Part shown: positions 44,129 to 47,649 of the stretch, one piece after another
Layout of the letters: each line of letters starts with the position of its first letter
Position numbering within the stretch: the stretch's first letter is position 1
NCBI GenBank assembly: GCA_963697585.1
Contig: CAVOOO010000009.1
Coordinates: 471,295 to 535,294 of the forward strand
Direction: 5' to 3'
Source of the DNA: an uncultured Chloroflexia bacterium
Lineage (GTDB): Bacteria > Chloroflexota > Dormibacteria > Aeolococcales > Aeolococcaceae
DNA length: 64,000 bases
Position numbers and translations under genes: made by a program
The notes under the pieces: model-generated
What the model saw: the letters and a program-made list of their open reading frames with translations, nothing else
Told to the model about the DNA's origin: nothing
Database searches by the model: none

Positions 44129-44749
44129 CTACTGCTCCTCCTCGAGGAGCTGGGTCTCCCCATAGGTGCAGAGGGCGCCGTTGTTACCCCCCGACGGGCA
44201 GTTGGTGCCGAGCGCGCCGATGAAGGGGACGGGGGTCAGCGGGGCGTACTGGTAGCCCACCCCCACCACCACCACCGTGCCGCCCGCGTCGAAGCAACCG
44301 GCGGCCGGCGTCGATGCCGTCCAGGTGCTGCCGCTGTAGGAGCCGAAGGCGCTGTTGGCCACGCTCCACTGGGTGCAGAGCTGCGGGCTCCCCACCTGCT
44401 CCAGCTGGAAGTACCAGACCCCGATGCACCCCTTCCCGGAGAAGGTGAACGGCGGGTAGGTGGTGGGCGTGAGGGTGGTGCCGTTCCAGAAGCAGTCGGC
44501 ATTCATGGGCAGGCCGCCGTTGTCCTGGGCCTCGGCGGAGATCGCGTTCACGATCGACGCGCCGGAGAACCCCGCCTGAGTCTCCACGACCGCCACCCGG
44601 TCCCCGGCCCGGGCGGCGTTCTCCACCGAGAGCCGGGCTCCGAAGTAGCCGCCGAAGTCGATGGTCGCGAAGATCACGACCATGAAGATGGGCAGGACCA
44701 GGGAGAACTCGACCAGCGTCTGCCCGCCGGCGCGGCGGCGCCGTCTCAC
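44129..44749 (-). CDS. TadE-like pseudopilin / pilus assembly protein (206 aa)
   Basis: N-terminus RRRRRAGGQTLVEFSLVLPIFMVVIFATIDFGGYF (TadE signature, prepilin-peptidase-type G/Q-x-x-VEF). The body is Cys- and Gly/Thr-rich. Its GTG overlaps the upstream stop (GTGA). Confidence 0.7.
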   Translation of the reverse strand: MRRRRRAGGQTLVEFSLVLPIFMVVIFATIDFGGYFGARLSVENAARAGDRVAVVETQAGFSGASIVNAISAEAQDNGGLPMNADCFWNGTTLTPTTYPPFTFSGKGCIGVWYFQLEQVGSPQLCTQWSVANSAFGSYSGSTWTASTPAAGCFDAGGTVVVVGVGYQYAPLTPVPFIGALGTNCPSGGNNGALCTYGETQLLEEEQ

Positions 44750-45795
44750 GACTGCACCACCAGGGCGAACTGAGCGGTGATGTAGGCCCGGAGGCCGAAG
44801 GTCGCGTTCAGGACCGTGAAGACGGGACCGGGGCTGGTCGAGCTCCAGTTGTACATGACGGTGATCTGCACCAGGTCACCGGCGGCGACCAGCCCCGCCG
44901 TGCTGCTGCACCCGCTGCTGGTCTCGAGGCATCCCACGTCCGAGTTGGCGTCCGAGGACCACCAGGCGACCACGTCCGAGGCGGCGCTCAGGCTCGCGCT
45001 GGAGTAGCTCCCGTCGCTGCTCTTGAAGTAGACGATCGAGATGCAGCTGGTCGGGGTGCCCGAGGCCCCGCTCCCGGCGGGGAAGCTCCCCGGGACGCCC
45101 GGGGTCGCGCCCCAGGCGGGGTCACCGGCGGCCGGCGGCGTGCCCCCCGTCCACGTGCAGTCGACGTTGTCGAGGGCCAGGCCGCCCTCCGGGACCGTGA
45201 GCGCCTCCGCCTCGTCCTGGACCAGGGCCTCGACGTTGGTGCTGGGCGGATACCAGAGCACCGAGGTGCCACTGCTGTAGGTGGTGGTGGGGGTCCATGA
45301 TTCGATGCTGACGCTGGTCGCAGTCCGAGCGGCGGCCGCCGTCAGGGTCAGCTTGGGCCCGGTCGAGCTGGTGAGGTAGAGGGACGCGCCGCTCGGGAGG
45401 TCCACCGGCAGGGAGGCCACGGCGAGGGTCGTGTAGGGGCCGCCGGCGGCCGTGTACGCGGCGGTCGTCGAGGTCGTGTACGAGGTCGCCGGGCAGCTGT
45501 AGGTGCCGGCGGACGAGCTCCAGGCCGGCGCCGGGCAGGCGGCGCTCCACGGCAGCGGGCTGGTGTTGGTGGTGTTCTCGCTGGCGTAGCGGGTGCTGTC
45601 CCGGACCACGGTGGTGATGTTGTTGACGTGCTCGAGGTAGTAGCCGTAGTCGGCCACCGACACCGCCAGGGCGAGCAGGAGCGGGAAGACCAGGGCGAAC
45701 TCGACCATCGCCTGACCACGGCGCCGCCGCGCTCCGGGCCGCCGCGGCCGGCCTTCGCCCGCCTGCCGGGATCGGTCCCCCTGGTGTCGGGCCAC
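44746..45795 (-). CDS. TadE-like pseudopilin / pilus assembly protein (349 aa)
   Basis: ARRRRGQAMVEFALVFPLLLALAVSVADYGYY, followed by an extremely Ser/Thr/Ala-rich body. The start is placed at GTG 45795, which is preceded by GAAGGAGAG. Confidence 0.7.
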   Translation of the reverse strand: MARHQGDRSRQAGEGRPRRPGARRRRGQAMVEFALVFPLLLALAVSVADYGYYLEHVNNITTVVRDSTRYASENTTNTSPLPWSAACPAPAWSSSAGTYSCPATSYTTSTTAAYTAAGGPYTTLAVASLPVDLPSGASLYLTSSTGPKLTLTAAAARTATSVSIESWTPTTTYSSGTSVLWYPPSTNVEALVQDEAEALTVPEGGLALDNVDCTWTGGTPPAAGDPAWGATPGVPGSFPAGSGASGTPTSCISIVYFKSSDGSYSSASLSAASDVVAWWSSDANSDVGCLETSSGCSSTAGLVAAGDLVQITVMYNWSSTSPGPVFTVLNATFGLRAYITAQFALVVQS

Positions 45796-45836
45796 GTGCT
45801 CTCCTTCAGGCACGGCGAGGTTCCGCCTGCTTCGCC

Positions 45837-45842
45837 AGCCTA
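45837..45842 (-). promoter_or_regulatory. candidate -10 hexamer TAGGCT upstream of the TadE-like pair
   Basis: Minus strand reads ggcggggTAGGCTggcgaagcagg. It is about 40 nt upstream of GTG 45795, with an SD in between. Confidence 0.25.
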
Positions 45843-45906
45843 CCCCGCCTCCGTGACGCTCTCCGTTGACGAATGGCCACCGCTGCGTAACAACTCTCCG
45901 GTGCCC

Positions 45907-45938
45907 CGAGCGGCGCCGCGAGGTCGCGGCGCGGCTCG
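45907..45938 (-). terminator. strong GC hairpin 11 nt downstream of the TadG-like stop (no U-tract)
   Basis: The core gcgccgcg-aggt-cgcggcgc is an 8-bp stem with a 4-nt loop. Five further pairs follow after a 1x1 mismatch (cgagc/gctcg). Confidence 0.3.
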
Positions 45939-45948
45939 AGGGCGCCCG

Positions 45949-47649
45949 CTACTTGACCAGGTCGCCGGGGTTCGAGGACTCCGGGGCGATGGCGATGGAG
46001 CCGGTCGCGGTCCCCAGGGTGGCCGAGCTGGTGTTGTAGAAGATGTTGTTGACGATGATCGGGGAGGGGACCGCGGTGGTCCCGGCGTTGAGGAAGATGG
46101 TCCCCGAATCGGCGTAGACGCCCCCCGACGGGTAGCCGGTGTCGGCGGTCACCCCCGAGCTGTTGACGAAGAAGGCGTCGGCATTGTCGTTGCAGCGATC
46201 GAAGTAGAAGAGGATGTTGCTGTAGGTCGACGAGGCGCTGAGGTCCAGGGTGGTGCTGCCGTTGAACTCGATCTCACCGCCGCTGGACTGGGAGCTGCAG
46301 CTGTAGCTGCTGCCCGACCCCGACCAGGTTCCGCAGGAGGCCGGCGAGGTGCCGCTGCCACAGGTCATGTAGAAGGTGACCCCGGTGCCGCTCAGCTTGA
46401 CCCCGGAGCTGTTGATGAGCATGGTCCCACCGTCCAGGACGTAGACCCCCGGGTTGAAGGTCACGTTGGCCTGGATGGTCATGGACCCGAACACACCCGG
46501 GTTGACGGTGGCCGCCGACTCGATGGTCAGCGAGCTGTAGTCACCCGACGCGAGGGTCACCGCGTTCCCGTTCACGGTCAGGCAACCGGAGGTGTTCTCC
46601 CAGGTCGCCGCGGTCACGCTGCCGCAGCTGGTGGCGGCGCCCGTGTAGCTCGGCACCGAGGCGGTGGCCAGCGGGTCGGTGAACGCGGGGGCCACCGCGC
46701 TGCTCCAGGTGGTGGGGCTGAACACGTTGCCGGTCCCGTTGTTGTCCACCGGGCTCGACTTGGTGCTGCTCATGTTGAACTTGCCGCTGGTCTCGATGGT
46801 GTTGGTGCTGCTGTTGAAGAAGACCGAGTAGCCGCTGCCACCGTCGATACTCAGGTTCCCGGAGGCGTTGATGACATCCGAGGAGCCGTTGAACATGGCG
46901 GTGGCGCCGTCCTCCTGCTGACCCCCGAGGATGTCGATGCCGTATCCGTTGGTGGTCTCGACGGTGTCGTTGCTGCTGTTGAAGAAGATGTAGCCGCCGA
47001 CGTCGATGCTGCCACCGCCGGACTCCAGGATGTCGCCGCCGTTGATGGTGACGTCGCGGAAGACGCAGACCTCGCAGGCGGTCTGGGGGTTGGTGCTGTT
47101 GCCGCTGCTGCCGCCGCCACCGGTGCTGGAGACCTCGGCGACGGCCTGGGACTGGACGGTGTGGGTCCTGGTCTTCGAGCCCAGCTCCGCGAAGGCGTCC
47201 GTGGAGGTGTTGCTGACGTTGGTGCCGACAAAGTCCACGCTCGAGGCGGTGACGCTGCCGCAGGTGTTGCTGCTGGAGGTCCAGGTGCAGGCCGGGCTGC
47301 CGGTGAAGCTCGACCCGTAGAAGTTGACGGTGACCGTGCAGGGGGCCTCCGGGCCATTGCAGTCGGCGCTCGCGACATTGGCCGCGGCCGTGTAGGCGGT
47401 GCTCAGGGTGCCGCCGCTCCAGAGGGTGTAGGAGGCCGCCAGCGCGGCCGAATCGGAGACGTCCTGGTCGTTGCGGGACTGGTCGTAGCTCAACCCGGCG
47501 TCGATGGTCAGTGCCGCGAAGCCGGCGATGATGACGAGCATGAGGGCCACGATCGGGATGACCTGGCCCCGCTGCCGTGCTCGGCGCCTGTTCACTCCCC
47601 GGTCCTCCACGTAGGCACGCCCGGCGATCGCCGGTGCCCAGGCGGGCAC
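45949..47649 (-). CDS. TadG-like pilus-associated protein with beta-helix-like, Asn/Ser/Thr-rich body (566 aa)
   Basis: N-terminus RRRARQRGQVIPIVALMLVIIAGFAALTIDAGLSYDQSRNDQDVSDSAALAAS (TadG/Tad N-terminal signature). Repeated rungs of the FFNSSNDTVETT / FFNSSTNTIETS / EFNGSTTLDLS type. GTG start. Confidence 0.65.
   Translation of the reverse strand: MPAWAPAIAGRAYVEDRGVNRRRARQRGQVIPIVALMLVIIAGFAALTIDAGLSYDQSRNDQDVSDSAALAASYTLWSGGTLSTAYTAAANVASADCNGPEAPCTVTVNFYGSSFTGSPACTWTSSSNTCGSVTASSVDFVGTNVSNTSTDAFAELGSKTRTHTVQSQAVAEVSSTGGGGSSGNSTNPQTACEVCVFRDVTINGGDILESGGGSIDVGGYIFFNSSNDTVETTNGYGIDILGGQQEDGATAMFNGSSDVINASGNLSIDGGSGYSVFFNSSTNTIETSGKFNMSSTKSSPVDNNGTGNVFSPTTWSSAVAPAFTDPLATASVPSYTGAATSCGSVTAATWENTSGCLTVNGNAVTLASGDYSSLTIESAATVNPGVFGSMTIQANVTFNPGVYVLDGGTMLINSSGVKLSGTGVTFYMTCGSGTSPASCGTWSGSGSSYSCSSQSSGGEIEFNGSTTLDLSASSTYSNILFYFDRCNDNADAFFVNSSGVTADTGYPSGGVYADSGTIFLNAGTTAVPSPIIVNNIFYNTSSATLGTATGSIAIAPESSNPGDLVK

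Follow-up and report, generated by a model that had tools for sequence, protein, structure and literature searches.

A detached TadE/TadE/TadG gene trio between relA and hisS in a Dormibacteria genome: a probable minor-pilin tip set of a dispersed Flp/Tad pilus

In Myxococcus xanthus, four paralogous clusters of TadE/TadF/TadG-like genes (KilLMN) form heterotrimeric Tips, and three of the four are encoded apart from the kil machinery clusters (Herrou et al., Nat Commun 2025, PMC12075869). Priming of the Kil Tad pilus depends on these Tips, on which the variable, disulfide-rich distal domain of the large TadG-like subunit is exposed; in the models of that study TadG homologues form the backbone of the tips and also their extremity, the interchangeability of the four Tips was shown genetically, and the same tip role was proposed by the authors for TadEFG in general (PMC12075869). 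The present analysis concerns a trio of minor-pilin genes, TadE1, TadE2 and a TadG-like large minor pilin (hereafter TadG), situated between relA and hisS in a 64,000-nt stretch of DNA (the window; C9:471295-535294) from a 3.2-Mb metagenome-assembled genome (MAG) of an uncultured Dormibacteria member of the Chloroflexota, assembled in nine contigs and 88% complete. The trio is best read as the minor-pilin tip or priming complex of an Flp/Tad pilus, and probably as one of several interchangeable tip sets. Its layout is known from Myxococcus; it is a new example and not a new kind of system.

The comparison with the M. xanthus KilL/KilM/KilN Tips extends to three adjacent TadE/TadF/TadG-like genes, to paralogous sets placed mostly away from the machinery and sharing a prepilin peptidase, and to a large TadG-like subunit with many cysteines and a variable distal domain that has no homologue in the PDB. 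All sequence-level features of the Kil Tip model are present in the trio, including the occurrence of several paralogous sets with divergent distal domains. Unlike the Kil system, the host is a monoderm-type Chloroflexota with neither a secretin nor a type III secretion system (T3SS*) partner, the trio is pinned beside relA, there is no evidence of predation, and both the trimer and the tip role are predicted. Furthermore, the modelled ectodomain appears to contain a beta-helix-like insert, unlike the alpha/beta scaffold of KilN4. With TadE/TadF/TadG of Aggregatibacter actinomycetemcomitans and CpaJ/CpaK of Caulobacter the trio has in common the families PF07811 and PF13400 and, in the TadE-type proteins, the motif G/xxxxE[FY] (here and below the slash marks the cleavage site). 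The combination of two small pseudopilins and one larger TadG is likewise that of a classical tad neighbourhood. However, the classical TadE/F/G proteins are smaller and encoded inside the tad operon downstream of tadABCD, whereas the genes described here are detached, exceed them two- to threefold in size and carry lineage-specific domains, and this TadG is without a vWA domain.

That the three proteins carry TadE-, TadE- and TadG-type N-termini had been proposed in the initial annotation, which was made from the sequence alone and named failure of profile searches as one outcome that would speak against it. The quoted N-termini are present, and with hidden Markov models (HMMs) all three proteins scored above the Pfam curated thresholds (22.9 bits for PF07811, TadE; 22.3 bits for PF13400, Tad; scores in Table 1). 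An NCBIfam search returned trusted matches for none of the three. PF13400 was also matched by 18 of 25 TadG homologues, and a Pfam scan of these 25 found no other family. TadE1 and TadE2 have the leaders RRRRAGG/QTLVEF and RRRRG/QAMVEF, respectively, each with Gly at position -1 and Glu at +5, the TadE2 motif being kept in homologues that retain the leader. The resulting class III signature, G/QxxVE[FY], is common to both proteins and to the Flp pilin of the genome (KG/QGMVEY). The N-terminus of TadG, RQRG/QVIPIVALML, is devoid of the Glu at +5; its orthologues nevertheless keep the Gly-Gln junction after an Arg-rich leader, like the TadE proteins. The numbers of cysteines are 6 in TadE1, 6 in TadE2 and 12 in TadG; cysteines and N-terminal motifs are invariant across 25-30 homologues.

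All three open reading frames (ORFs) are intact. Homologue lengths and a conserved Shine-Dalgarno sequence led to revised GTG starts at 47595 for TadG (548 aa) and at 45795 for TadE2 (349 aa), which are likely the true ones. The TadE2 stop and the TadE1 start share 4 nt (GTGA), an overlap that points to coupled translation of the two genes.

The trio lies outside a classical tad operon, and even the nearest core genes are at a distance of more than 150 kb or belong to different contigs. It had been called an orphan, and this holds within the window, where genome-wide HMM scans located neither a T2SSE ATPase nor a T2SSF platform gene nor an Flp gene; it does not hold for the genome, in which Tad machinery is present elsewhere. 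Three flp genes, two CpaB-TadB-TadC modules and three chromosomal CpaF/TadA-like ATPases were identified (Table 1), and a gene for a TadZ/CpaE-like ParA protein directly follows the flp of contig C8. The earlier suggestion of a surface fibre or adhesin whose assembly machinery has its genes in another part of the genome is supported by these loci. The A24 prepilin peptidase, already recognized as the only related gene nearby, is the window's one other Tad gene and the sole A24 peptidase of the genome; presumably it processes Flp, the type IVa pilins and TadE1/TadE2. The PilB/PilC/PilT set of the type IVa system is separate from the Tad parts. No secretin was found in the genome, as expected for a monoderm.

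Altogether four TadE/TadE/TadG trios are present in the genome (Table 1), those at C9:570133-573427 and C4:808805-810566 being, like the trio of the window, remote from any pilus ATPase or platform gene. The four are alike solely over the N-terminal approximately 50-100 residues, and their ectodomains are unrelated; paralogy of the ectodomains was considered and rejected, as no similarity extends past the N-termini. Since four trios carry unrelated ectodomains, they may be regarded as interchangeable tips on shared machinery.

Table 1. Location of the minor-pilin trios, their non-coding elements and the Tad and type IVa pilus genes. Positions without a contig name refer to the window.
Feature	Position	Strand	Remarks
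TadE1	44129..44749	-	206-aa TadE-type minor pilin; PF07811 52.6 bits, E 5e-14; GC content at third codon positions (GC3) 0.96
TadE2	44746..45813	-	355-aa ORF, TadE-type minor pilin; PF07811 38.1 bits, E 1.7e-9
TadG-like large minor pilin	45949..47649	-	566-aa ORF; PF13400 25.0 bits
hisS (flanking gene)	42754-44019		trio between hisS and relA
relA (flanking gene)	47822-50104		trio between hisS and relA
TadG-TadE2 intergenic region	45801..45948	-	hairpin, 36-nt block, TAGGCT, Shine-Dalgarno
Conserved block upstream of TadG	47655..47730	-	~75 nt, GGGTTGCGACCGGGAATCCAC..GCGTTACC..CTGCCACCTTTGACGCGATATCA
A24 prepilin peptidase	31192..31956	-	PF01478 39.8 bits; single genome-wide match
TadE/TadE/TadG trio	window		between relA and hisS
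TadE/TadE/TadG trio	C9:570133-573427		~35 kb past window end; 669-aa TadG; between recG-like and DAK2-like genes
TadE/TadE/TadG trio	C4:808805-810566		
Small TadE/TadE/TadG set	C1		within C1 tad locus
flp (three genes)	C9:336k; C8:89.7k; C4:1047k		genome-wide HMM scan
CpaB-TadB-TadC (two modules)	C8:83.6-86.5k; C9:208-210.9k		
Chromosomal CpaF/TadA-like ATPases (three)	C8:61.6k; C8:66.4k; C4:690.9k		
Type IVa set PilB/PilC/PilT	C8:298-305k		separate from Tad parts

TadG is composed of an N-terminal helix module, a beta-helix-like insert (residues ~170-360) and a C-terminal domain (~365-566). The AlphaFold2 model was built from 25 sequences; its mean predicted local distance difference test score (pLDDT) is 78.7, and most positions in the range 174-530 exceed 85. 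In this model a long helix at the N-terminus (residues 13-59) is followed by a second helix and a small beta domain. Triplets of short strands, assigned by DSSP, then begin at residues 174, 196, 219, 247 and 273, an arrangement like that of a beta-helix with three faces, and a second beta-rich domain occupies residues 323-528. Nine of the 12 cysteines are invariant in the homologue alignment. The top of the Foldseek list against the PDB consists nearly entirely of beta-helix proteins (PfbA adhesin, ice-binding proteins, tapirins, antigen 43, pectate lyases, tailspikes and the pilin ComZ). The beta-helix body predicted from the repeated segments of the protein thus agrees with the rung pattern and with the character of these hits, but none of the hits reaches significance. 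A profile of TadG matched no PDB sequence.

Exhaustive search of 1.84 billion representatives with residues 171-566 gave 12 clusters at E<=1e-10, and a further ~70 weak cluster matches (E 1e-8 to 1e-3) span residues ~365-565 only. The weak matches that were sampled are mostly proteins of ~420-450 aa, 7 of 10 with PF13400, and the C-terminal domain seems to be weakly related to ordinary TadG proteins of ~420 aa. From this search pattern it follows that TadG consists of conserved N- and C-terminal TadG parts with a lineage-specific insert between them. As for TadE2, the model of moderate confidence (pLDDT 70) has an alpha1 helix at residues 32-79 followed by beta domains, i.e. a pilin-like fold. 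An inserted beta domain at ~108-190 (pLDDT 83-93) is the most variable part of the alignment, while the C-terminal half is conserved (QxEAESLTVPEGGL...); Foldseek found nothing significant for TadE2 in the PDB.

The gene order relA-TadG-TadE2-TadE1-hisS, followed by a gene for 90 aa, is held in every related MAG locus that reaches both flanks, shorter loci showing the relA side only. Identities to the window proteins in the related loci are 85-94% for relA and 75-91% for hisS, versus 44-62% for TadE2, 33-65% for TadE1 and 38-66% for TadG. Across loci L026-L030 and L048-L055, in which TadE1 orthologues adjoin TadE2, the corresponding values are 85-97% (relA), 75-91% (hisS) and 29-66% (TadG). 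For two genomes belonging to the same genus the relA identity is 90-95%; TadG is ~31% identical over its length in one of them and alignable over the first ~200 residues in the other. A class-level scan of 201 genomes confined full-length TadG orthologues to the genus of the window and a few genera of the same family, beside relA in all cases but one, the exception (L047) being a second, paralogous copy whose 1.5-kb flanks lack relA. The N-terminal module of ~160 residues is far wider spread in the same scan: 140 of the 201 Dormibacteria genomes have 1-5 copies, fused to bodies of 400-900 aa and often accompanied by TadE-like genes. Homologues of TadG came only from Dormibacteria-type MAGs, under the names Candidatus Dormibacteria or Dormiibacterota, and nearly all of the 44 homologues of TadE2 are from Dormibacteria metagenomes. 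Judged from these alignments, the position of the trio is fixed and its exposed parts are hypervariable. The fixation beside relA, together with ectodomains diverging far faster than the neighbouring genes, fits diversifying or cassette-like evolution of the surface-exposed part.

A comparable set was noticed outside the lineage. In an Acidobacteriaceae MAG (JAFATG010000027.1; L032:6184-8462) a trio of TadE (147 aa), TadE (169 aa) and TadG (435 aa) lies by proS and a DksA-like gene and faces a multi-pass membrane protein of 529 aa; its TadG and that of the window have the C-terminal motif GTGVTFYMTC...ILFF.DR in common.

For the tip function the following course may be envisaged. TadE1 and TadE2 would be cut after the Gly of G/QxxVEF by the sole A24 peptidase, and their alpha1 helices would bundle with that of TadG into a heterotrimer. 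TadG, having no Glu at +5, would be placed at the very top as a GspK-like cap. GspK, the cap subunit of type II secretion, is, as Korotkov and Hol reportedly described in 2008, the largest minor pilin, has no Glu5 and caps a trimeric tip. In the GspK-GspI-GspJ tip, the largest minor pilin, which has no Glu5, occupies the position proposed here for TadG. A minor pilin with a large beta-solenoid insert is also exemplified by ComZ of Thermus thermophilus (PDB 6qvi), which ranked tenth in the Foldseek list at a non-significant E of 0.43. Sequence homology to GspK-GspI-GspJ and ComZ is undetectable, and they belong to another filament class. The trimer could then prime Flp polymerisation on the TadB/TadC platform driven by a CpaF-like ATPase, all of which are encoded in the genome, and the pilus tip would present the Cys-rich ectodomain of TadG, stabilised by disulfides and bearing the beta-helix-like insert, as a surface for adhesion or recognition.

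Several observations weigh against this proposal. Completeness of the MAG is only 88%; more than one ATPase and platform set could serve the trio; one TadC copy (C9:~209.8-210.9k) looks frameshifted; and the resemblance of the TadG model to beta-helix proteins falls short of significance (best E 0.044, TM, or template modelling, score <0.2). In addition, the substrates of Aggregatibacter TadV named in the title of Tomich 2006 are Flp1, TadE and TadF only, and TadG may for this reason stay membrane-anchored instead of moving to the tip.

The last point leads to the main rival, in which the trio forms a membrane-anchored sub-complex for assembly or anchoring. TadG would be kept in the cytoplasmic membrane by its uncleaved N-terminal helix, with its ectodomain at the cell surface or pilus base, and the trio would aid biogenesis but not make up the distal tip. 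Besides the wording of that title, the absence of Glu at +5, the deviation of GQVIPIV from the TadE motif and the nature of the PF13400 module, a hydrophobic helix, are in its favour. Conservation of the Arg-rich leader and Gly-Gln junction among TadG orthologues argues in the other direction, however, and a hypervariable Cys-rich ectodomain better suits distal exposure; TadG homologues have, moreover, been modelled as tip backbone and extremity (PMC12075869). An anchored TadG is therefore regarded as unlikely.

Service to another filament is less probable still. The trio could supply minor pilins to the type IVa system or be used for Tad-independent display through class III signals and the shared peptidase, given that one peptidase is available for all class III substrates, that the PilB/PilC/PilT set is full and that the Tad core genes are unlinked to the trio. 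For the second of these variants, raised in the initial annotation, no positive evidence emerged. PF07811 and PF13400 are Tad-specific and were matched above cut-off by 3/3 proteins, the cleavage motif corresponds to that of Flp (G/QxxVEY) and not to the type IVa G/FTLxE, and the same gene order occurs inside tad loci of other genomes as well as in the C1 locus of this genome.

A further possibility is that TadG represents a heavily N-glycosylated coat or fibre protein of the surface, its richness in sequons being functional. The estimate of roughly 15 or more N-x-S/T sequons proved sound: 17 were counted, the highest density in the proteome, as compared with 10.2 +/- 2.7 in shuffled sequences (P about 0.01), and a GT-C-type membrane glycosyltransferase-like gene neighbours the prepilin peptidase. 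Yet of the 17 positions just 2 recur in a majority of 24 homologues, which hold 4-15 sequons, and the best match of the genome to an STT3/PglB-type transferase scored 17.1 bits against a cut-off of 24.5. The excess arises mostly from composition and rung motifs, because NSS and NGS coincide with the turns of the repeated rungs in the beta-rich part of the protein. N-glycosylation of TadG was consequently dropped, the excess being real yet poorly conserved and STT3 below cut-off, and a glycosylated coat is considered very improbable. The glycosyltransferase-like gene itself (28906-30726) encodes a membrane protein of 606 aa that matches GT87 (GT-C) weakly, and it adjoins the sole prepilin peptidase gene; it is possible that its product glycosylates pilins.

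Finally, it is hardly credible that the trio is a decaying or non-functional remnant of a broken-up tad locus, as its separation from all machinery, the frameshifted appearance of one TadC elsewhere and the TadG frameshifts in one related MAG (L027/L051) could suggest, when the ORFs are intact with native GC3, the cysteines and N-terminal motifs are unchanged among homologues, the regulatory blocks and the synteny across several genera are conserved, and the frameshifted MAG is a single assembly that may carry sequencing errors.

The composition of the genes agrees with their being functional, a conclusion drawn from the native GC3 and the intact ORFs. The bodies had been described as unusually A/T-rich, and indeed their GC content (0.65-0.70) is below the genome level and the proteins are rich in Ser, Thr, Asn and Gly. 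Any implication of foreign origin did not stand: the deficit sits in the first codon position (GC1 0.49-0.60), as a result of that amino acid composition, whereas GC3 of the trio reaches 0.94-0.96, the genome mean being 0.916 +/- 0.039. Because of these GC3 values codon usage is taken as native and the genes as no recent imports, and foreign origin of the A/T-richer bodies was ruled out.

Some related irregularities were recorded. At L027:8001-9609, in the same MAG as L051 (labelled Chloroflexia), the TadG orthologue is split over three reading frames, which may be due to long-read indel error or real decay. In the second cpaB-tadB-tadC module TadC (C9:209780-210887) reads in two frames with a break near 210456-210480, either an assembly error or a pseudogene.

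Two compact Tad-like loci, C1:1-9500 and C4:226000-231100, have a lower GC3 (0.80-0.93), and the best NCBIfam score of their ATPases is to the "conjugal transfer-associated" TadA family; for both reasons they look accessory, and they are likely accessory or mobile. Contig C1 measures 52 kb, has a mean GC3 of 0.86 and carries a full tad locus that includes a small TadE/E/G set. A complete locus with its own TadE/F/G genes, together with silence of the trio, had been named beforehand as a finding that would count against the trio, and the C1 locus corresponds to it in part; it belongs, however, to a small contig of lower GC3 and accessory appearance, and the conservation of the trio speaks against its being redundant junk.

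The non-coding parts of the locus are conserved as well, the intergenic comparison being made over five loci. Directly 3' of the TadG stop lies a GC-rich hairpin (~45908-45938) with a stem of some 17 base pairs; the 135-nt region in its entirety has a z score of -1.95. It is followed by a conserved 36-nt block (45865-45900; CGGAGAGTTGTTACG...TTCGTCAAC), a -10-like hexamer TAGGCT (45837-45842) and an AAGGAG Shine-Dalgarno sequence before TadE2 (45801-45806), the last two conserved in orthologous loci. Both the hairpin and the pair of TAGGCT and Shine-Dalgarno sequence seen at the outset are accordingly real features. The block upstream of TadG (47655-47730) was found in all relA-adjacent orthologous loci and is followed by a GGAGGA Shine-Dalgarno sequence (47603-47608). 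Division of the trio into 1+2 transcription units, as originally proposed, gains support from conserved non-coding blocks upstream of TadG and of TadE2.

Both blocks, each of which occurs once in the genome, are probably locus-specific promoter or operator DNA for some regulator, to judge from their conservation pattern. A scan with the sigma-70 consensus detected no promoter-like site, and Rfam gave chance-level matches only over 43900-48000. For the 47655-47730 block RNAalifold yielded -8.6 kcal/mol with a covariation term of -0.3, a weak support that disfavours a structured RNA in the 5' untranslated region of TadG and makes a DNA-level element more likely. A shared regulon motif linking the scattered Tad genes was ruled out by the uniqueness of both blocks. 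It was also observed that both blocks show little RNA covariation and are conserved among family-level relatives though the adjoining proteins are merely 30-66% identical.

Elsewhere in the window, a PilM/FtsA-like actin-fold gene (36485-37750) and then a gene for a 701-aa protein without Pfam match (34366-36471) form a pair (34366-37750) bounded by alaS and the ruvX/mltG genes. Two neighbouring plus-strand genes (50035-52561) encode proteins of 386 and 488 aa that start in Pro-rich repeats, in which DGRYWWDGSRW-like motifs occur; no Pfam family matches either protein, and the 386-aa one is kept beside relA in related MAGs (47-70% identity).

A more speculative extension of the tip-complex reading, to which we give limited credence, is that the relA-hisS interval is a fixed tip-swap site, where conserved flanks would let cassettes for pilus-tip specificity be exchanged by recombination. 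Inside a single genus the identity of relA remains about 95%, while that genus has seen the TadG ectodomain replaced or diverged past alignment. If this were true, tip swapping, three to four unlinked tip sets and a dispersed Tad machine would together make a programmable recognition organelle in uncultured soil bacteria, with cell-cell contact, attachment to substrates and escape from pilus-binding phages as possible uses of the tips, and the locus-specific conserved non-coding blocks would control the tip cassette.

Peat, permafrost and desert soils harbour abundant Dormibacteria, which to our knowledge have no cultured representative and whose surface biology is known from genomes alone. 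The TadG described here is a clean case of a lineage-specific beta-helix-like module between conserved TadG N- and C-terminal parts, and in annotation detached TadE/TadG trios should not be taken for broken systems. The locus suggests that Dormibacteria build Tad pili from dispersed genes, with several fast-evolving tips, and would extend the idea of an adaptable tip from predatory Myxococcus to monoderm soil lineages.

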